A stretch of 64,000 nucleotides of DNA, taken from positions 147,679-211,678 of the IMG/VR virus record IMGVR_UViG_3300020048_000009. One strand, 5' to 3'. Positions 3,695 through 35,466 of the stretch are shown one piece after another. The position numbers and the translations under genes were made by a program. The notes beneath the pieces are model-generated. The model made no database searches and was not told the origin of the DNA. It saw only the letters and a program-made list of their open reading frames with translations. Numbering within the stretch: the first letter of the stretch is position 1; every line of letters starts with the position of its first letter. The DNA comes from a virus. Lineage: Duplodnaviria; Caudoviricetes.

Positions 3695-4696
3695 ATGAAC
3701 GATAACAAACTTAATTCAATCGGTTTCTATACAATGTATGATGAGCGCGTCAGTAAAGTTTCAGCGACTTCACAAATGAAGCGTTGTGAACTTATTATTA
3801 CAGAATATTGTAATTTCAAGTGTCCTTATTGCCGTGGTCTTGCTGATTATATCTATGGTAATAGAAAGATCAAGCAATTGACATTTAAGGAAATTTGTTA
3901 TATCATCGATCAGTGGTGTAAGCTTGAGCCTTTGGAGAGTATCAGATTTTCTGGTGGAGAACCTACTCTTCATCCCGATATTGTAGATGTTATCAAATAT
4001 GCGAAGGCAAAAGGTATTAAGAATATCGCAATTTCTACAAATGGATCTTCTCCTCAGGAATTATATGATCAGCTGTTAGAAGCAGGTGTTAATGACTGCT
4101 CAATTTCATTAGATGCTTGTTGTGCAGAAGATGGCGATCATATGGCTGGTGATAAGAAGGGTGCTTGGGATATTTTAACAAAAAACATTGCATATATCGC
4201 TAAGAAATGTTATGTTACTGTTGGTGTAGTTTTAACTCCTGAAAATGTTGATAAAACTATTGATACTGTTAGATTTGCTCATACATTAGGTGTTGCCGAT
4301 ATTCGTATTATCAGTGCTGCTCAGTGGAATCAGCCAATTCCTAGACTTAATGAAATTGAACAGGAAATTTTAGAAGCACACCCAATTCTAAAATATCGTG
4401 TTGGACATTTCGCAAATGGTGTTAATGTTAGAGGTATTTCTGATACTGATAGCAAGAGATGCTCACTTGGTTACGACGACGCAATCGTAGCGGGTGAATA
4501 TGCGTTCCCATGCATTATCTATATGCGGGAAGGTGGTAAACCTATCTGTAAGGTGGGAGATGATATGCGTGAACGTAAGATAGAATGGTTAAAGACACAT
4601 AACACACATCTTGACCCTATTTGTAAAAAGAATTGCCTGGACGTGTGCGTTTCGTACAACTGCAAATACAGAGAAATTCATGGAGAACAAGCTTAA
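3695..4696 (+). CDS. radical SAM protein
   Basis: CNFKCPYC (CxxxCxxC), FSGGEP, STNG; extra C-terminal Cys cluster. Confidence 0.9.
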   Translation: MNDNKLNSIGFYTMYDERVSKVSATSQMKRCELIITEYCNFKCPYCRGLADYIYGNRKIKQLTFKEICYIIDQWCKLEPLESIRFSGGEPTLHPDIVDVIKYAKAKGIKNIAISTNGSSPQELYDQLLEAGVNDCSISLDACCAEDGDHMAGDKKGAWDILTKNIAYIAKKCYVTVGVVLTPENVDKTIDTVRFAHTLGVADIRIISAAQWNQPIPRLNEIEQEILEAHPILKYRVGHFANGVNVRGISDTDSKRCSLGYDDAIVAGEYAFPCIIYMREGGKPICKVGDDMRERKIEWLKTHNTHLDPICKKNCLDVCVSYNCKYREIHGEQA

Positions 4697-8652: not shown

Positions 8653-9843
8653 ATGAAAACAGTAATTGGAAAGTATAATGAAGCAAAAATTTTTGCAACA
8701 ACAGTTGAAGCTTCATGTGAACAGCAAATTTTAGATTTATGTAATGAGTCTTGGGCGCAGGATTGTAATATCCGTATTATGCCTGATTGCCATTCTGGAA
8801 AGGGATGTGTAATCGGTACTACTATGACAATCAAAGATAAGATCGTACCCAATTTGGTAGGCGTAGATATTGGCTGCGGTATGCTTACTACTAAGTTCAG
8901 AGCATTAAAGCTTGATTTAAAGCAAGTTGATAGAACAATTAAGCAGGAAATTCCTATGGGTAGAAATATTCATAACGAAGCTCTTGTTGATTTTTCGCCT
9001 GAATTGAATAAGCTTTGGGCCGTTAAAAAGGAAATAGGTTTTGATAAGGTTTCTAGAAGTCTTGGTTCTTTGGGTGGTGGAAATCACTTCATTGAAATCG
9101 GAAAAGACGAAGATGATTGTTATTATCTAGTTATCCATAGCGGTTCAAGAAACTTTGGTAAGAAGGTAGCTGAATACTATCAGGGTAAAGCTGTTGATTA
9201 TCATAAACTTCTTACAGGTGATGCTAGAAAGGCTTTTATTGAACAATTAAAGTCAGAAGGTCGTCAAGATGAAATTAAAGATGCTTTAATTAAATATAAT
9301 GAGCAGTATAATACTGATTTGTGTTATTTAGAGGGCGCATTATTTAATTCATATTTAAACGATATGAAAATTGCTCAGAAGTTTGCTTCTTTAAACAGAT
9401 ATACTATCGCTAATATTTTATGTAAGGCTTTTCAGGTTGGACCAATAGAACAATTTGAAACAGTTCATAACTATATTGATACTGATAATATGATTCTAAG
9501 AAAAGGCGCAATTTCAGCTCAAAAGGATGAAAAGTGTTTAATCCCTATTAATATGAGAGATGGTTCTTTATTATGTGTCGGTAAGGGTAATGTTGATTTT
9601 AACTATTCTGCTCCTCATGGTGCAGGACGTTTAATGTCACGTACTAAGGCTAGACACGAGTTATCATTAGATGAGTTTAAGGATACAATGTCTAATGTAT
9701 ATTCATCTACTGTTGGAATGTCAACACTTGATGAAGCGCCTATGGCATATAAGCCAATAGCAGAAATCTTAGAAAATATTAAAGATACTGTTGATGTTAT
9801 AACACAGATTAAACCTATTTATAACGTTAAAGCAGAAGAGTAA
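8653..9843 (+). CDS. rtcB: RtcB family RNA 3'-phosphate ligase
   Basis: MPDCHSG, VGVDIGCG, GSLGGGNHFIE, HSGSRNFG, HGAGRLMSR, DEAPMAYK. Confidence 0.97.
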   Translation: MKTVIGKYNEAKIFATTVEASCEQQILDLCNESWAQDCNIRIMPDCHSGKGCVIGTTMTIKDKIVPNLVGVDIGCGMLTTKFRALKLDLKQVDRTIKQEIPMGRNIHNEALVDFSPELNKLWAVKKEIGFDKVSRSLGSLGGGNHFIEIGKDEDDCYYLVIHSGSRNFGKKVAEYYQGKAVDYHKLLTGDARKAFIEQLKSEGRQDEIKDALIKYNEQYNTDLCYLEGALFNSYLNDMKIAQKFASLNRYTIANILCKAFQVGPIEQFETVHNYIDTDNMILRKGAISAQKDEKCLIPINMRDGSLLCVGKGNVDFNYSAPHGAGRLMSRTKARHELSLDEFKDTMSNVYSSTVGMSTLDEAPMAYKPIAEILENIKDTVDVITQIKPIYNVKAEE

Positions 9844-15121: not shown

Positions 15122-16120
15122 ATGAATGAATTACTAACAAGAGATGATTTTAGAGAATCCGTTTTTAAAAGAGACGGATTCAAATGTCTTTTTTGTGATT
15201 GTACTGAAAATTTAGATGCGCATCACATTATAGAACGTCGTTTATTCACAGATGGTGGATATTATATTGATAATGGAGCAACCCTTTGTCAAAAACATCA
15301 CTTAATGGCAGAATCTACTGAATTAACTTGTACTGAACTTAGAGAAAAAGCTAATATCAAAACGATAGTTTTGCCTGAAGATTTTTACAGCGATTGTAAT
15401 TATGATAAATGGGGAAATATTTATATTGGCCAATTGCGAACAAAGGGGCCGTTATTTTTTAATGAAAGCGTTCAGAAAATATTAACTGGTAGTTTTACAG
15501 ATTTTGTAAAATATCCTAGAACATATCATTTGCCCTGGTCAGAGTCTAAAACTGATGATGATAGAACACTGACAAATGTGGATCATTTTCTTAATGAAGA
15601 AGTAGTTGTTACAGAAAAAATGGATGGTGAAAATTCCACTCTTTATAATAATTATTTCCATGCTAGAAGTTTAGATGGAAATAGTCATTGGACACAAAAT
15701 TGGTTAAAGAATTTTCATGCCTGTTTTAAATTTGATATTCCGACTGGTTGGCGTATTTGTGGCGAAAATGTATATGCCAAACATAGTATTAAATATGAAA
15801 ATCTTCCTTCATATTTCTTCTGTTTCTCTATTTGGACCGATAGAAATCTCTGTTTATCCTGGGATGATACTCTAGATTGGTGTAAATTATATGAAATTGA
15901 ACATGTTCCAGTTTTATACGAAGGTATTTTTGATGAAGAAGTTATTAGAAACTTACCTTTAAATAAAGAAAAGCAAGAGGGATATGTTATTCGTAAACGA
16001 AAAGCTTTTGCTTATGGTGAATTTTCAAAATCTATTGCAAAATTTGTAAGAAAAAATCATGTACAAGATACTGTACATAATTGGAAAAGCAGTAAAATTG
16101 AAGTTAATGGTTTAGAATAA
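15122..16120 (+). CDS. HNH nuclease-RNA ligase fusion
   Basis: N-terminal VFKRD..CLFC..LDAHHI..N..LC..HH; C-terminal KYPRTYHL, TEKMDGEN, CGEN, EGYVIR, KFVR. Confidence 0.85.
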   Translation: MNELLTRDDFRESVFKRDGFKCLFCDCTENLDAHHIIERRLFTDGGYYIDNGATLCQKHHLMAESTELTCTELREKANIKTIVLPEDFYSDCNYDKWGNIYIGQLRTKGPLFFNESVQKILTGSFTDFVKYPRTYHLPWSESKTDDDRTLTNVDHFLNEEVVVTEKMDGENSTLYNNYFHARSLDGNSHWTQNWLKNFHACFKFDIPTGWRICGENVYAKHSIKYENLPSYFFCFSIWTDRNLCLSWDDTLDWCKLYEIEHVPVLYEGIFDEEVIRNLPLNKEKQEGYVIRKRKAFAYGEFSKSIAKFVRKNHVQDTVHNWKSSKIEVNGLE

Positions 16121-16587: not shown

Positions 16588-17052
16588 ATGAAAATAATTT
16601 TTGTAGATGTAGATGGTGTTTTGAATTGTAAGAATACTACTGATACTGTCATGGGCGATGATGGTCGTAGATATGATGGCATAGATTCAGATAAAATTCA
16701 ATTATTAAAAGAAATAATTGATAAAACTGATGCTTATATTATTTTATCTTCTACCTGGAGATTATATGATACGTTTACAGAATACCTAGAGGAAAAACTT
16801 GGTGACTATAAAGTCAGAATAAAAGGTATTACTCCAAGATCAAAAGCTTTTACCTATACCTATAGATTTAGAGAAATTCAAAACTGGTTTAATGAAAATG
16901 ATACTCGGGATATTGTTAATTATATTATTTTAGATGATATTGATGAAGAAATGGTTGAAACTTTTGGAGATCATTATTTTAAAACAGATGTTGATATCGG
17001 ATTAACCAGAGAAATCACAGATAAATGTATAGAGTATTTAAATAAGGAATAA
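16588..17052 (+). CDS. HAD-superfamily phosphatase, HAD_SAK_2 (RNA-repair) type
   Basis: IIFVDVDGVLN, IILSSTWR, YIILDD, GLT. Confidence 0.85.
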   Translation: MKIIFVDVDGVLNCKNTTDTVMGDDGRRYDGIDSDKIQLLKEIIDKTDAYIILSSTWRLYDTFTEYLEEKLGDYKVRIKGITPRSKAFTYTYRFREIQNWFNENDTRDIVNYIILDDIDEEMVETFGDHYFKTDVDIGLTREITDKCIEYLNKE

Positions 17053-18355: not shown

Positions 18356-18397
18356 TATAATTGTATCTAGTATGGATACAATAGGAGTATTATAAGT

Positions 18398-19468
18398 ATG
18401 AATAAGTTAAATGAAGTTCTTTGGGAATTCACAAATAAGTGTAATAAAAACTGTGAATATTGTGGATCTAAAGATTTAATGAATAATGGAGCACAAGAGC
18501 TTACAATTGAGCAAAAACTTGATGTATGTAAGCAGATTGTATCTATGGGTATTAATGAATTAACTTTTACAGGCGGTGAGCCTTCTGTAAAAAGTAATGA
18601 TCTATATAAAGTAGTTCAATATTTTAGAGATAATGCTCCAGGTATAAAGTTGAAGATTTTAACAAATGGTAATTTGTTTAAAGGCCATGATTTATATAGA
18701 CATGGTGTAATTATAGATAATATGACATCTATAGGCTTATCATTAAATACATTAGACGATATTTTAGAGTTAAGGAAATATAGGGATACTATCCCATACG
18801 AAAAAACAGCAGCTGTTATTAATTTTGGTAAGCATAATATTGGAGATTTTGTAGAATTAATTAAAGCGGGTTTAAATTTTTGTGCTATACAGGTTCAATT
18901 AACAATGGGAAATGATCTCCAGTTAGATTTACCACAAATTAAAGTTCTTTTATCTTCTATACAAAAAGTAAATGAATCGGGTTTAGGAAAAATTTATATC
19001 GGTGATAATTTGAGTTATCACACTTCATGTGTTGCAGGTAAAAGCGCTTGTAGTATAACTTTTGATGGAAAAGTTGTAGCATGTTTATCACATAGATGTT
19101 TTACTAAAATTAAATACCATGGAAATTTGTTAACAGATAAATTTTCAGACATTTGGAGTCTTTGTTTTAGAGAATATAGAAATAGAGATGCTGAACCTCT
19201 TTCTTGTAAAGATTGTACTAGAATATGTAAACTAAAACAATCAACAGATACAATACCAGATACAACCACAACAATAACGTGGACACAAGAAGAATTAAAA
19301 ACAGATTGGACAAAAGTAACAATGCCAACTCTTATAACATATGGTGTTGGTGATTTTTCAAGAGATCAACATGTATATGTTTATGGTGTTATTAATCCCA
19401 ATACGACTGGTTATTATGCGGGTAAATTAGATATGACATCTCATAATAACACAAATAATTTAAAATAA
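18398..19468 (+). CDS. radical SAM/SPASM protein with a C-terminal YG-motif tail (splicease-like)
   Basis: WEFTNKCNKNCEYCGS, TGGEP, CVAG...SITFDGKVVACLS, CKDC; low-complexity linker followed by TYGV and VYGV. Confidence 0.85.
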   Translation: MNKLNEVLWEFTNKCNKNCEYCGSKDLMNNGAQELTIEQKLDVCKQIVSMGINELTFTGGEPSVKSNDLYKVVQYFRDNAPGIKLKILTNGNLFKGHDLYRHGVIIDNMTSIGLSLNTLDDILELRKYRDTIPYEKTAAVINFGKHNIGDFVELIKAGLNFCAIQVQLTMGNDLQLDLPQIKVLLSSIQKVNESGLGKIYIGDNLSYHTSCVAGKSACSITFDGKVVACLSHRCFTKIKYHGNLLTDKFSDIWSLCFREYRNRDAEPLSCKDCTRICKLKQSTDTIPDTTTTITWTQEELKTDWTKVTMPTLITYGVGDFSRDQHVYVYGVINPNTTGYYAGKLDMTSHNNTNNLK

Positions 19469-19474
19469 AATTTT

Positions 19475-20527
19475 ATGATTAATAAATTAAAAGATATTAA
19501 AGAATCACTCTGTTATGATGATGTTTTATTACTTCCTCGGTATAGTACAATAAAATCTAGATTTATTGACGTAGATCTTAGCGTTACATTAGATAAGAAA
19601 AGAGGTATAACTTTAAAACTACCGATTATTTCTAGTCCAATGGATACAATTACTGAAGATAGAATGGCTATTGTGATGGCTGATGTGGGTGGATTGGGCA
19701 TCATCCATAGATATAATACAATAGAAAGACAAATTTTCTTGTTATCTACCGTATTATTTGATAATTCAGATAGAAATGTTGCATGTGCTATCGGTATAAG
19801 CGGTGATTATTTAGAACGAGCCGAAAGATTGGTTAAATCTGGATGTAGAATTTTATGTTTAGATGTTGCACATGGCCATTGTGAACAGATGAAGATTGCG
19901 TTACAAACACTTCGTCCGCTATATCCCGATATTCATTTAATGGCCGGTAATATTGCAACAAGTATTGGTGGATGTGAATTACAAGAATGGGGTGCTGATA
20001 GTATTCGTTGTGGTGTGGGTAGTGGAAGTATCTGTAGTACAAGAATTCAAACAGGTCATGGTCAGCAAGTTCTTCAGACAATTGTTGATTGTGCTGAACA
20101 TGTTTCTGACGATTTACCATTAATTGCCGATGGCGGAATTAAAAATTCTGGTGATATAGCTAAAGCTTTAGCAGGTGGAGCATCGTTTGCTATGATTGGT
20201 TCTCTATTTGCTGGAACGACTGAAACACCTGGTGAAATTATTTTAGATAAATCTGATAAGAAAAGAAAATTATATAGAGGAATGGCATCTAAAGAAGCAC
20301 AATTAGAATGGCGAGGAAGAGCCGCTTCATTAGAAGGAGTTTCAACAACAGTTCCTTATAGGGGAACAGTATTAGAAATTCTAAATAATATAGATACTAA
20401 TTTACGTTCATGTTTTTCTTATTCAGGTGCACATAATATTAATGAATTTTGGGATCGGTCTATTTTTGTAAAACAAACGGCTGGTGGATATAACGAGAGC
20501 TTTACACATATTTTGAATAGGAATTAA
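19475..20527 (+). CDS. IMP dehydrogenase/GMP reductase family protein (no CBS domains)
   Basis: [52 protein letters not shown]. Confidence 0.92.
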
Positions 20528-20528
20528 G

Positions 20529-21287
20529 ATGACGGTTAATATAATAAGTGATTTACATGTAAATCCAAATTATGGTATTTATGATAGATTTGATCCGACT
20601 AAATTAAAAAATGCAGATGTTATTGCCATTGCTGGTGATATTTATACTGTTGGTGGGAATGGTGTATTTGAAAGGTATATAAAACGCTTTTCTGAAGATT
20701 TTGTTGCTGCTGATGGATCTAAAAAATTTAAGCATTTAATATGTGTTAAAGGCAATCATGATTATTATACATATGATTTTAATGATTTATCATGTATAAA
20801 ACAAGATGTAGACCATAGAAATACTATTACAACAATTGATAATGTTTCTTTTTTATCAACGACTCTTTGGACAAATATAACAAAAAATATATTAATGCTT
20901 CAACAGTTTTTCCCTGATTATAGAATGATTCCATATTTTCTTGTAAATGATAGTAATAGATTATTTGTAGAAAATCTTGAATGGTTGGAAGAAAACGCTA
21001 AAAAGGAAAAAGAAAAAGGTAATAAAGTTGTTATCTTAACTCATCATGTACCTCATAAAAAATTATCAAATATATCATATAAAGATAGTAACGCTAATGA
21101 ACGTTTTACTGTTATGGCTAGAGATTTTTATAAAAGATGTACTGCAATTAAAGCTAAATATTGGATTCATGGACATTCACATGATTATATGAATAAAAAA
21201 ATAGGAACTACCACTTTTATTAGAAATCCGTTTGGATATGTATTAGAACAAACAGGCTTTAAATATGATTGTGTTATAAAGGTTTAA
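20529..21287 (+). CDS. calcineurin-like metallophosphoesterase
   Basis: SDLH, AGD, GNHDYY, THHVP, HGHSH. Confidence 0.9.
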   Translation: MTVNIISDLHVNPNYGIYDRFDPTKLKNADVIAIAGDIYTVGGNGVFERYIKRFSEDFVAADGSKKFKHLICVKGNHDYYTYDFNDLSCIKQDVDHRNTITTIDNVSFLSTTLWTNITKNILMLQQFFPDYRMIPYFLVNDSNRLFVENLEWLEENAKKEKEKGNKVVILTHHVPHKKLSNISYKDSNANERFTVMARDFYKRCTAIKAKYWIHGHSHDYMNKKIGTTTFIRNPFGYVLEQTGFKYDCVIKV

Positions 21288-22106: not shown

Positions 22107-23504
22107 ATGAAATATTATAACATACACATTTGTGAAGCGTATAATCAAATAATCTTAGAAGATATTTCTAATAAGATATTGATACAATCTCAAAAAATAT
22201 GGAATACTATACCCGAAGAAGAAGTAAAAACAATTTTGGAAAACTTTTTACTCAATATTAGACATAAAGTAAAAACTCCTGATAATGATATAAACTTTTG
22301 GTTTAAAAAGCCTTTTAGTGAATTTAAAAATTTCGTAGAAAATTATAAATCATTAACACAGAGAAAAAAAGAACAAAAGTCTATTACTAAAATAACAAAA
22401 GATGGAAAAGGTATTGGTATTATTCAGAATGATGAATATGAACTTTGGAAAGTAGATTCATACAAAGCAGCTAAAGAATTAGGAAGATTTTATAAGGGTT
22501 ATTCTACCAGTTGGTGTATAAGCACTGATAATGAGGAATTTTGGAATAATTATTATTATGGTATAGAAAATGAAGAGTATGATTCTGACAATGATAGCGA
22601 TGATGATGAATGGTCAGAACTACCACATCGAATTTATTTTCTAATTAGAAAAAATAGAAAAAATGATGATTATGATAAAATTGCCATTTTAATACATGAA
22701 CGTAGTGAATACTTAAGCTTTTGGACGGTTTCTGATGAAAATGTAGAAATTTCAGATATTTATAAAGTATTAGATATTGACTTTTTTAAACCATATATAA
22801 AATATTATCCATATGATCAGAACTCTAAAGAATATATTAAATATAAATTAGGAAAAGATTTCATTAATGCGTGTGGTCATAGCGGTAGATACGGTGATAT
22901 ATCTAGAATTAAAAAATTTGTAGATAATGGTGTTGATCTTAAATCACATGGCGAGAGTGCATTAATGAAAGCGTTAAAAAATAAAATAATACCTACAAGT
23001 AAATACCTTATAGAATTAGGAATACCTATTACTAAAGATAATTATGGTAATATACTATATTATGGTAGTAAAACTAATAATTTTGAATTAATAAAAATTA
23101 TTATAGAAAAATGTATTGAACAGGGGTTTGACGTAAATTATGATAGTATGTTAGTATGGCTTTATCGTACTACAACAAATATAGATACAAATATAATAAA
23201 ATATCTATTAAGCCACGGGGCAGATATTCATCACAATGATAATCAAATAATAAAACGTTTAGTATATAATTTTTATGATAAAGATTATGGTGATATATTT
23301 AAGTTTTTAATAGATAATAAACATATTACTAAAGAAGAATTATTAAAAATTGCAGTTAACAGTAATCATTTTAGATCAACAAAATATTTTATAGATATTG
23401 GTGCAGATATTAATACTATTACTGATGAGGATTTTATCACAAACACTGTGCTAAAAAATACAAGACCTGAAATAATTAATTTATTTAAAAATAGAACGAA
23501 ATAA
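22107..23504 (+). CDS. ankyrin-repeat protein with an N-terminal phage WC domain
   Basis: ICEAYNQIILE; SWCIST..FW..YY; C-terminal KKFVDNGVD, KYLIELG, KYLLSHGADI, KYFIDIGADIN. Confidence 0.75.
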   Translation: MKYYNIHICEAYNQIILEDISNKILIQSQKIWNTIPEEEVKTILENFLLNIRHKVKTPDNDINFWFKKPFSEFKNFVENYKSLTQRKKEQKSITKITKDGKGIGIIQNDEYELWKVDSYKAAKELGRFYKGYSTSWCISTDNEEFWNNYYYGIENEEYDSDNDSDDDEWSELPHRIYFLIRKNRKNDDYDKIAILIHERSEYLSFWTVSDENVEISDIYKVLDIDFFKPYIKYYPYDQNSKEYIKYKLGKDFINACGHSGRYGDISRIKKFVDNGVDLKSHGESALMKALKNKIIPTSKYLIELGIPITKDNYGNILYYGSKTNNFELIKIIIEKCIEQGFDVNYDSMLVWLYRTTTNIDTNIIKYLLSHGADIHHNDNQIIKRLVYNFYDKDYGDIFKFLIDNKHITKEELLKIAVNSNHFRSTKYFIDIGADINTITDEDFITNTVLKNTRPEIINLFKNRTK

Positions 23505-23518
23505 GAAAGAAAATATAA

Positions 23519-24562
23519 ATGAAAGATTATAATGATATAGTATATAAAGCATATCAATTAGTACTTGAAAGTACTAGAGGTTCTGCTGATATAAATATTC
23601 CTAGACCAAATAGACTTAAAACACCACCTAATAATTATGGCAGTTCAGGGCAAAATGCTCGTGAGTATGGTATGTATATTCAAGACCAAGCTGAAGAAGT
23701 CTATCAAGATAAATATGGTAGAGAAAAAGGTACCAAAGCATGGGAAGGTATCATTAGTGTTGGAAATGCAATGTTTAAAGCATGTGATCAAATTTTAGGT
23801 GAAAAACGTACAATGACTGATATAGTTGGTGATTTTATGCGAGATCAAGTTGATAATATGATTACCGATGAAATATGGCGCAAAGCTACTGATTCTTACA
23901 TTTGTTTATGGTGTGCCTGGATTTTATTACAAAAAACTAAAGGAACCAATTATACACAAGACTTTTTATCAGAATGCATCCCAACTTTTAAAAGTGTACT
24001 ATCATATCTACCAGGTTTCTTAGAACCATTTTTACTTAAAGCAGAAATAGATATTAATAATTTTGCATTAAGTAAAAAAGTTCAAACTGCTGTTGATTTA
24101 AAAGAAAAAGTTAGACAGCAACTAGCAGCATTAGACGCAGTAGAACAGCAACAAAAACAAACAGCAGCGACTAATACCAAAACAATGATAGATACGTTTG
24201 TTAATGCATTACCAAATGCTGCAGCTATTAAAGCAAATACAAAATATAATAACTATATATACGATCGGATTAGTATATTAATAGATTCTAAGGCATTAAC
24301 TAAATTAATTAAATATGAATTTAATGGTCAAAAAGATAATGATAGAATAGTTAATATGCTTAGAAAATCATTACGAGACGAATATAAAAATGAAGCAGAT
24401 GTTATGCCATGGATGATTGATATATCAAAAGCTAGAAATTTTGCTGATAATATGAATGCCGCTATTACTGATGAAGGTAAAAGAAATGCTCGTAAAAAAG
24501 CCGCAGAAGATTTAGGTGTAAAATATATTGCCGATCGTTTTACAAATGCGGTACCCGAATAA
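23519..24562 (+). CDS. hypothetical, probable head-packaged protein
   Basis: N-terminal KAYQLVLES. Confidence 0.6.
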   Translation: MKDYNDIVYKAYQLVLESTRGSADINIPRPNRLKTPPNNYGSSGQNAREYGMYIQDQAEEVYQDKYGREKGTKAWEGIISVGNAMFKACDQILGEKRTMTDIVGDFMRDQVDNMITDEIWRKATDSYICLWCAWILLQKTKGTNYTQDFLSECIPTFKSVLSYLPGFLEPFLLKAEIDINNFALSKKVQTAVDLKEKVRQQLAALDAVEQQQKQTAATNTKTMIDTFVNALPNAAAIKANTKYNNYIYDRISILIDSKALTKLIKYEFNGQKDNDRIVNMLRKSLRDEYKNEADVMPWMIDISKARNFADNMNAAITDEGKRNARKKAAEDLGVKYIADRFTNAVPE

Positions 24563-33890: not shown

Positions 33891-34550
33891 TTAAGTATTC
33901 ATTTTGGATAAAATAAAAACACAATTACCTTTTCCATCAGCATATGTCTGCCAATTATCTTTTAATCCTGATACATGTTGAATTTTTTTATCAGTATTCC
34001 AACCATAAGACTTAAATGTATTTTCCCACCATATTTCATCTTCTGCTATAAGATGTGATATTTCAATATGATATTCTTTTATTCTATATTTTCCATTATC
34101 ACCCATTGGAATAACACACATTATATTAGAACAAATTTTTGATATATTGTTTAACATTTTTTCTAATTGTTCTAATGTTAAATGTTCTAAAACGTCTTTA
34201 ATTATAACATGTGTATATTTATTAGTATTTGCAGCCCATGATAAATCTTTAGAACAATTCCAACATCCACTTGGAGCAAAAGATAAGGCATACTCACTTA
34301 TATCACATCCATCTGCTTTAATTTCTAATAATCTTAATGCTTTTACAATAAAACCTTTGGCACATCCAATATCTAATATATAACTATGTTCATTTAATTG
34401 CAATGTATCAATATATGCTAGTGCCTCTTTAATTGATCGAATTGGCATCCATTTATAATTAGATAACCAACCCTTTCCTGATTCTCTTCCACGTTCAAAA
34501 TAATCAGCATCATAAAACTCACCTGTAAACTCTTTAGACGAACTCGACAT
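33891..34550 (-). CDS. class I SAM-dependent methyltransferase
   Basis: YDADYF; ILDIGCAKG; DISEYA; DVLEHL. Confidence 0.85.
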   Translation of the reverse strand: MSSSSKEFTGEFYDADYFERGRESGKGWLSNYKWMPIRSIKEALAYIDTLQLNEHSYILDIGCAKGFIVKALRLLEIKADGCDISEYALSFAPSGCWNCSKDLSWAANTNKYTHVIIKDVLEHLTLEQLEKMLNNISKICSNIMCVIPMGDNGKYRIKEYHIEISHLIAEDEIWWENTFKSYGWNTDKKIQHVSGLKDNWQTYADGKGNCVFILSKMNT

Positions 34551-35466
34551 CTTTAACTCCTTTTAATAAATTATGTATAAAATCATTATGTTCTTTACCA
34601 CAATTACAAAAACTACAATTATATTTTAAATCATGTGGTGGATTATTTAAAAGCCATTGTTCTAAATCTTTAATTTTACATAAATTAAATTTTGATGGTA
34701 TATATCCTTCATATTCAGGTGTTAATTGAATAGACGGGCACGGTAGAAAATTACCGTTCCAATCTATTGCCGCACGTATCCATGCCATATAACAACCCAA
34801 TGGTTGACCAGTTGCTTTTTTTGAAAAAAATATAAAATCTAAATATTTAGAAACATAAGCGTTTATATCCGACTCTCTTTCTAATGTTGACGGGCGTTGC
34901 GCCGCAATTCTTACAATTATATTTTTTTCTTTTGCCCATATATATAAATTATCAATTATATCTAATTTTTCAACATTTCCTATAATATAAGAAGTACTAA
35001 TATTTATATTCTCTGGAATATTGCTTAACTTTAAATTATTTACGTGTGAAAGTGATTGTAAACTAATTCTTATCCATGCTAATTTAGATAAACTATTTTT
35101 TGAAATATTACATAAAGATAACCCGTTAGTTATTAATGATATTTTTAATTTTTTATTACTTGCATAATCAATAGCTTCTTCGATGTGTGGCCATAATAAT
35201 GGTTCGCCACCACCAGAAAATTCTATAGCCTTACACCCATATTTACTTAATATATTAATTGCTAATTTAAAATCATCTAATGATAATTCCTTTGTTTTAT
35301 CCTTAATATTTTTACAACAACAATAGCTACAATTACATTGGCATTTAATAGTTGGCCATATTGACACATGAATTGGTGCCACTGTTTTACTGTCACATAT
35401 ATTTTGTATGTGCTGTGTATGATATATTAATTTATGTAATCCGACGGAATATCTATTAAAATCCAT
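34534..35466 (-). CDS. radical SAM protein
   Basis: CQCNCSYC, FSGGGEP, ITNG, C-terminal Cys cluster. Confidence 0.85.
   Translation of the reverse strand: MDFNRYSVGLHKLIYHTQHIQNICDSKTVAPIHVSIWPTIKCQCNCSYCCCKNIKDKTKELSLDDFKLAINILSKYGCKAIEFSGGGEPLLWPHIEEAIDYASNKKLKISLITNGLSLCNISKNSLSKLAWIRISLQSLSHVNNLKLSNIPENINISTSYIIGNVEKLDIIDNLYIWAKEKNIIVRIAAQRPSTLERESDINAYVSKYLDFIFFSKKATGQPLGCYMAWIRAAIDWNGNFLPCPSIQLTPEYEGYIPSKFNLCKIKDLEQWLLNNPPHDLKYNCSFCNCGKEHNDFIHNLLKGVKDVEFV

Follow-up and report, generated by a model that had tools for sequence, protein, structure and literature searches.

We analyzed a 64,000-nucleotide stretch of phage DNA (referred to here as the window), which is the final 64 kb of the 211,678-bp IMG/VR virus record IMGVR_UViG_3300020048_000009. 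The window encodes a protein of 356 amino acids (P0001) that is a member of the radical S-adenosylmethionine (SAM) superfamily and ends in a tail bearing a short, tyrosine-centered motif, and the same tail design is kept in hundreds of phage lineages. The best explanation of these data, which we advance tentatively and with a little less than even confidence, is that this single polypeptide of a jumbo phage combines an enzyme with its own substrate and acts on the tyrosines of its tail. We favor this explanation because no other aromatic residue ever takes the place of the tyrosine, because the motif varies in copy number and its repeats duplicate, because no partner gene, leader, or RRE domain was found, and because the predicted fold resembles those of peptide maturases. 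An earlier note on this DNA, made from the sequence alone, had proposed a self-modifying splicease (i.e., an enzyme that excises tyramine from its own tail). The gene and its product have the following features (positions are those of the window).

18398..19468, plus strand: radical SAM gene, whole (P0001); open reading frame (ORF) with translation, 356 amino acids
18383..18387, plus strand: AGGAG ribosome-binding site, 10 nt 5' of the ATG; read from the sequence
18425..18823, plus strand: radical SAM core, residues 10 to 142; Pfam PF04055, 57 bits (cut-off, 29.5), E value of 3.5e-15
18440 to 18463, plus strand: CX3CX2C cluster motif (C15/C19/C22), within WEFTNKCNKNCEYCGS (residues 9 to 24)
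19028..19219, plus strand: SPASM/Twitch-type auxiliary-cluster domain, residues 211 to 274; Pfam PF13186, 32.6 bits (cut-off, 21.5)
19229..19465, plus strand: predicted disordered C-terminal tail, residues 278 to 356, rich in Pro, Thr, Asp, and Lys, with two Tyr motifs; from AlphaFold2 and composition
19325..19357, plus strand: tail motif 1, residues 310 to 320, P-T-L-I-T-Y315-G-V-G-D-F; from coordinates
19367..19399, plus strand: tail motif 2, residues 324 to 334, Q-H-V-Y-V-Y329-G-V-I-N-P; matches the family logo, including the Pro at +5

The features that the earlier note had quoted from this gene are all present, i.e., the radical SAM motif, a Thr-rich stretch (TDTIPDTTTTITWT, beginning at residue 283), and the two tail tyrosines Y315 (nt 19340, within LITYGVGD) and Y329 (nt 19382, within VYVYGVIN). 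Its list of SPASM-like cysteines held in part. The C-terminal half of P0001 has Cys at positions 211, 218, 229, 234, 256, 270, 273, and 277. In the 119-sequence family alignment described below, C15, C19, and C22 were invariant, and the only family-conserved auxiliary cysteines were C211, C218, C229, and C270 (layout, C211-x12-G224-x4-C229 plus one downstream Cys). C211, C229, and C270 of the listed residues are accordingly family conserved, and C273 and C277 are not. A full SPASM domain has a 7-Cys motif and two auxiliary [4Fe-4S] clusters, and a Twitch domain has one such cluster. Because only four cysteines are conserved across the family, the sequence points to a Twitch-like auxiliary domain with one fully ligated cluster rather than a full 7-Cys SPASM domain.

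A word-indexed search recovered 43 homologs of P0001, and an exhaustive profile search recovered at least 260 representatives (clusters at 50% identity) at an E value of ≤1e-30. We aligned 119 members, which were 26 to 97% identical to P0001. None of the homologs bears an informative name, and a description of the family was absent from the searchable literature. The contigs that encode them are nearly all phage-like, with lengths of 20 to 500 kb, and often very large (97 to 500 kb). The motif is also present in 18 IMG/VR phage loci.

Tail motifs were counted as Y[GAS][VICTAL], with shuffled tails (200 shuffles) as the null. Each of the 119 aligned members contained at least one motif (range, 1 to 7; mostly 2 to 4), P0001 having two. 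In total, 336 tail motifs were observed, versus 36 ± 6 (maximum, 55) in the shuffles, and motif density was 3.0 per 100 residues in the tails versus 0.24 in the catalytic cores, a difference of approximately 13-fold. Two YG motifs in a single 84-amino-acid tail are alone not beyond chance, and the significance of the motif lies in its family-wide recurrence rather than in P0001. The expectation of the earlier note that homologs would keep their Tyr-motif tails was borne out in this alignment. No tail-bearing member has lost any of the catalytic cysteines. Searched alone, the tails matched no NCBIfam model.

The family logo reads P(-5)-x-[V/T/I](-3)-x-[V/M/L](-1)-Y-[G/A/S]-V-x-x-P(+5), with Gly (74%), Ala (21%), or Ser (4%) at +1 and Val (83%) or otherwise Thr, Ala, Ile, Cys, or Leu at +2. 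At the Tyr position with the same flanks, Tyr was found in 217 of 223 cases and Phe, Trp, or His in none, where Phe makes up 2.9% of the tail residues. This lack of any aromatic replacement implies a role for the phenol group as such, as in Tyr-directed radical chemistry. Y315 was invariant in the 119 sequences. Y329 did not vary within a set of 24 sequences, and its conservation in the 119 was at least 90%. The site equivalent to Y315 reads YAV in P0003 and P0005, two 61%-identical relatives.

The arrangement of the motifs along the tail is variable. Successive motifs are 5 to 68 residues apart (mode, 10 to 12), and the first motif follows C270 by a median of 42 residues (range, 14 to 74), a distance from the last cluster ligand that is long enough for the tail to fold back. 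The most alike repeat pairs within one tail were identical at 9 of 12 and 8 of 12 positions, and typical pairs have only the motif in common. Some of the repeats are probably recent duplicates, and the variable copy number resembles that of multicore peptide precursors.

These features bear on the idea of a catalytic or gating role for the tail, either as a MoaA-like extension that enters the active site or through a redox-active Tyr that would quench a product radical. In MoaA, radical initiation requires that the C-terminal Gly-Gly tail be inserted into the active site. The strictly conserved Tyr followed by a small residue would fit such a role, as would the sufficient reach of the tail, and the neighbors of P0001 in structure and in sequence include MoaA and viperin (see below). 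However, a catalytic element should be single and lie at a fixed distance, whereas the number, spacing, and offset of the motifs vary over the ranges given above. In addition, the repeats duplicate and diverge as cargo would, not as machinery, and the extreme C terminus is not conserved across the family. We judge this idea to be very improbable.

Apparent exceptions to the tail design were few. The homologs P0092 (L009, about positions 2000 to 2300) and that of L025 seem to be tail-less but are frameshifted, and in both a motif-bearing tail continues in another frame. The shift in L025 (6780 to 6900) lies at an A/T homopolymer run just past the last cluster ligand. Either case could reflect a sequencing error or a programmed frameshift that yields both tail-less and tailed forms. 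P0085 retains one motif before a run of Ns, and P0027 stops 95 bases from the end of its contig.

Structure predictions separated a well-ordered core from the tail. In an AlphaFold2 model of P0001 (119 sequences), residues 1 to 288 had predicted local distance difference test (pLDDT) scores of >90 and residues 291 to 356 had scores of <50. In a second run on the compact homolog P0072 (90 sequences), which was chosen for its regular motif spacing, the tail again scored <50. From the sequence and these models, the N-terminal 288 residues are predicted to fold as a radical SAM barrel and to carry a single auxiliary [4Fe-4S] cluster of the Twitch/SPASM type, and the last ~70 residues are predicted to be an intrinsically disordered tail that carries copies of a module of ~10 residues conforming to the logo. 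The nearest solved folds were those of SuiB, SkfB, and ChlB (Z score of 20.6 each), PqqE (20.4), CteB (19.6), and anSME (19.5). The top 14 Protein Data Bank (PDB) matches from Foldseek were likewise peptide or protein maturases, and PqqE filled the Swiss-Prot list. Searches of AlphaFold Database clusters and the ESM Atlas returned only unnamed or generic radical SAM/SPASM clusters, one ESM Atlas cluster (TM score, 0.68) being named for TIGR04133. The predicted fold leans toward a peptide substrate without deciding the question.

Within a peptide, PqqE crosslinks a Tyr ring through a C-C bond. PqqE (with PqqA) and ChlB are among the top fold matches of the phage enzyme and differ from it in having a full SPASM domain, an RRE domain or PqqD partner, and separate precursors, and their sequence likeness to P0001 is limited to generic radical SAM regions. 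A Pfam scan of P0001 detected neither an RRE nor a PqqD domain; the cluster motif already begins at residue 15, and a helix hidden in the linker may exist.

Among the known products of such enzymes, a three-residue cyclophane of the triceptide type, with a crosslink from the Tyr ring to the beta-carbon of the Val at +2, is a specific form that the chemistry of an enzyme fused to its substrate might take. The motif has the elements for it, i.e., a conserved aromatic residue, a small and variable middle residue (G/A/S), and a conserved third residue that bears a hydrogen on C-beta. The triceptide synthase ChlB ranks among the top matches in structure, triceptide precursors contain several aromatic-X-X motifs, and ChlB makes several aromatic crosslinks in one precursor (PMC12912966). 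However, the triceptide enzymes known work on any of Tyr, His, Phe, and Trp (one precursor contains YSK, HAS, and FTK; PMC12912966), whereas the phage tails use Tyr only. Moreover, conservation in the tails runs from -5 to +5, past the three residues that a cyclophane would involve, and the sequence similarity to ChlB is weak (E value of 4e-4). We consider a triceptide-type product quite unlikely.

Several observations weigh against the tail being the substrate. In both AlphaFold2 models, the tail was left undocked despite deep alignments, in contrast to true spliceases, in which AlphaFold places the XYG sites in the active site, as reported by the Piel group (PMC11414181). Viperin (Z score, 19.7) lies within 1 Z unit of the top structural match and MoaA (17.6) is not far below, a closeness that leaves room for a small-molecule substrate. 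The barrel contains many invariant polar residues (N90, S115, N117, N142, N147, Q165, Q167, D203, N204, R233, and R261), which would suit a nucleotide or sugar substrate too. In 25% of the motifs, Ala or Ser stands at +1 in place of Gly; the two forms occur together in one tail in 64 of 168 members, and 24 of the 168 lack any YG. By hidden Markov model (HMM) comparison, P0001 is no closer to the TIGR04103 splicease profile than to about a dozen other families. Finally, seven of 223 members (P0019, P0024, P0097, P0139, P0149, P0158, and P0226) end in D[LIV]PF after acidic residues, and the tips of other members are K/R-rich, acidic, or Zn-ribbon-like, which gives them a docking-like look. An acidic tip of the D[LIV]PF type is the hallmark of bacterial SSB tails and binds genome maintenance proteins. 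The tip sequences suggest that targeting modules were appended after the Tyr repeats. A glycyl-radical site was also considered for the motif and was ruled out by the replacement of Gly with Ala or Ser and by the members without YG.

The undocked, disordered tail, the SSB-like and other tips, the closeness of viperin and MoaA, and the invariant polar residues would fit the main alternative, in which the enzyme acts on a nucleotide, a nucleic acid, or a host or phage protein. The tail would then serve as a multivalent tether of short linear motifs that, as in SSB, brings the enzyme to a conserved partner, or as a regulatory or degradation handle. Further in favor of this account, the gene lies amid genes of nucleotide, DNA, or RNA metabolism at every locus, with RNA ligase, a HAD RNA-repair domain, an IMPDH/GMP-reductase-like protein, metallophosphoesterase, and helicase in the window and DNA ligase, RuvC, HD, a thymidylate-synthase-like gene, and Dam at other loci. 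However, a docking motif should sometimes tolerate a change from Tyr to Phe, and none was seen among the 223 cases. Within the phage genome the motif is confined to the enzyme, and it persists at 26 to 40% identity across evidently different phage lineages, so that one universally conserved partner would be needed. The top structural neighbors are peptide maturases, and the SSB-like tip occurs in only 3% of the members. On balance, we hold the tether account to be rather unlikely, and an enzyme fused to its own substrate remains our preferred explanation.

By sequence, P0001 stands apart from the curated radical SAM families. TIGR04103, which we take to be the PlpX splicease family, reached 47.1 bits (cut-off, 725) in an alignment confined to residues 5 to 69, and it matched 38 of the 119 members at an E value of ≤1e-8. 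The same profile stayed under its cut-off in all 14 control genomes. As judged from these profile scores, P0001 falls outside the PlpX-type splicease family. The likeness to the splicease clade that the earlier note had drawn does not extend to family membership; in favor of its splicease proposal are the resemblance of the tail motif to spliced PlpA cores (see below) and the SPASM/Twitch peptide maturases among the nearest folds. The best curated match was TIGR04133 (rSAM_w_lipo; uncharacterized), at 68.5 bits against a cut-off of 425. The resemblance to TIGR04133, also pointed out in the earlier note, is real and consistent, with matches in 101 of the 119 members at an E value of ≤1e-8 (best, 1.3e-23), but falls far under the cut-off. 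The phage enzyme differs from the TIGR04133/TIGR04134 system in that the motif is on the enzyme itself and no lipoprotein partner of the TIGR04134 type was named among its neighbors. The profiles viperin_w_prok (47 bits; cut-off, 180) and moaA (50.5 bits; cut-off, 284) aligned with the N-terminal core alone, and PADLOC pVip matches spanned only residues 7 to 121, a generic N-terminal radical SAM similarity. The likeness in fold to viperin and MoaA, though high, is generic as well. An outgroup profile search returned in-family proteins only.

If the tail is the substrate, the reaction might proceed as follows. The reduced cluster bound by the CX3CX2C motif would cleave SAM to give a 5'-deoxyadenosyl radical, which would attack a motif lying extended in the cleft that separates the barrel from the auxiliary-cluster domain. 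The attacked motif could belong to the enzyme's own tail (in cis) or to that of another subunit (in trans), and the chemistry would center on the strictly required tyrosine. Stand-alone peptide maturases depend on a leader peptide or an RRE protein, and the fusion would take over that role.

As for the product, the single likeliest chemistry, albeit one that we would not expect with any confidence, is a splicease-like excision of a tyramine equivalent, which would convert the preceding V/M/L/T residue into an alpha-keto-beta-amino amide. A Tyr-based C-C or C-O crosslink of the type made by PqqE or the triceptide synthases would be nearly as likely. Known spliceases excise tyramine at X-Y-G sites (MYG or LYG), and engineered systems act on leaderless protein tags (PMC10533398, PMC11414181, and PMC11626197). 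A ten-residue tag suffices for splicing by PlpXY, and the spliced cores of PlpA are AVAAMYGVVFP and PIRPLYGLPI (PMC10533398). The phage enzyme resembles the spliceases (PlpX/PlpY/PlpA, PcpX, RhaX, RcsX, and RasX) in combining a radical SAM core with a SPASM-type domain and, in P0001, in having X-Y-G-V sites in the tail. In addition, the core segments MYGVVFP and LYGLPI compare with the phage pattern [VML]-Y-G-V-x-x-P, the residue at -1 being V/M/L as in MYG and LYG, and the length of the PlpXY tag compares with the repeat spacing of 10 to 12 residues. It differs in its phage host, its fused substrate, and the lack of any Y protein, RRE, or leader that we could find, and also at +1, where a quarter of its sites have Ala or Ser and the cited splice sites are all X-Y-G. 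Back-translated PlpA3 and PlpA2 cores gave no match in genome contigs, and the one metagenome match was due to chance, being on a high-G+C contig without a radical SAM gene.

A more elaborate form of the splicease proposal is that of a self-arming phage protein. Here, tyramine would be spliced from each motif, and the resulting electrophilic alpha-ketoamides on the tail would block a host serine/threonine protease or other machine, with the SSB-like DD[IL]PF or basic tips steering the protein in some lineages. We think that this is improbable as a whole.

With regard to a partner, the supposition in the earlier note that no separate precursor accompanies the enzyme agrees with what we found. 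No flanking gene was conserved across 25 family loci, synteny being limited to one subgroup, and none of the other ORFs in the 211,678-bp phage genome contained the tail motif. There was no YG-rich small ORF within 5 kb of the enzyme gene. An off-frame ORF at 23868 to 24023, which contains TFVYGVPGF, was judged to be a chance match; ~1.6 such matches are expected in the 10 kb scanned (an estimate from residue frequencies). Pfam named no lipoprotein family among the neighbors scanned, a result that does not extend to signal peptides, which were not searched. A second radical SAM gene lay near the tailed enzyme in 7 of the 25 loci and was not orthologous to either of the two other radical SAM genes of the window.

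Those two genes (3695 to 4696, plus strand, 333 amino acids; 34534 to 35466, minus strand, 310 amino acids) are uncharacterized. NCBIfam matched them best to MoaA, at 89 bits, and to prokaryotic viperin, at 57 bits; both scores are far under the cut-off, and neither gene has a Tyr-motif tail.

The phage genome has a G+C content of 30% and is estimated to be 84% complete. Its DNA is present in aquatic and lake-water metagenomes, and a sequencing-run search found it in no RNA run. The window encodes a large terminase, a virion protein, a helicase, and RtcB. A near-perfect inverted repeat (TTGTATCTAGTATGGATACAA; 18361 to 18381), which could be a regulatory hairpin or operator, lies directly 5' of the radical SAM gene's ribosome-binding site. 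The genes around the enzyme include an RNA-repair set on its 5' side (8653 to 9843, 15122 to 16120, and 16588 to 17052), composed of an RtcB ligase (phrog_1075; E value of 2.9e-137), an RNA ligase (PF09414) whose N-terminal extension appears HNH-like on visual inspection, and a HAD RNA-repair domain of the "Swiss Army Knife" type (PF18143). This set possibly counters host tRNA or anticodon nucleases. Directly 3' of the enzyme is the IMPDH/GMP-reductase-like gene (19475 to 20527, plus strand), which lacks a CBS insert and scored 319 bits with PF00478 and under every NCBIfam equivalog cut-off. It is followed by the metallophosphoesterase gene, of the calcineurin-like type (20529 to 21287, plus strand); a phosphoesterase also adjoins the homolog in locus L007, and the neighborhood is otherwise not conserved. 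A protein of 465 amino acids (22107 to 23504, plus strand) has C-terminal ankyrin repeats (PF12796; E value of 3.2e-12), which are unusual in bacteriophages.

The known radical SAM peptide maturases are bacterial and reach separate precursors via leaders or recognition proteins. The family described here differs in that its members (at least 260 clusters at 50% identity) come mostly from large uncultured phages and carry a repeated, Tyr-centered apparent target on their own disordered tails. If the tail is a docking device, phage biology would gain a new, conserved short linear motif. If it is the substrate, radical protein editing would extend to viruses, and the enzyme would represent a minimal system for Tyr-directed radical chemistry, encoded by one gene, without leader or partner, and possibly usable as a one-component splice tag; it would also hint at a new route by which phages interfere with their hosts.

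The closest conceptual parallel to an enzyme fused to its substrate lies in the borosins (OphMA), in which a modifying enzyme has a C-terminal extension as its own substrate and needs no leader or recognition protein. Borosin enzymes are SAM-dependent N-methyltransferases of fungi or bacteria with nonradical chemistry, whereas the phage enzyme is viral and radical SAM and has no sequence or fold relation to them. If the fused-substrate explanation is true, the phage family would be the radical SAM counterpart of this type of enzyme-substrate fusion. If the self-arming proposal is also true, it would be the first viral system for backbone editing and the first self-modifying radical SAM enzyme.

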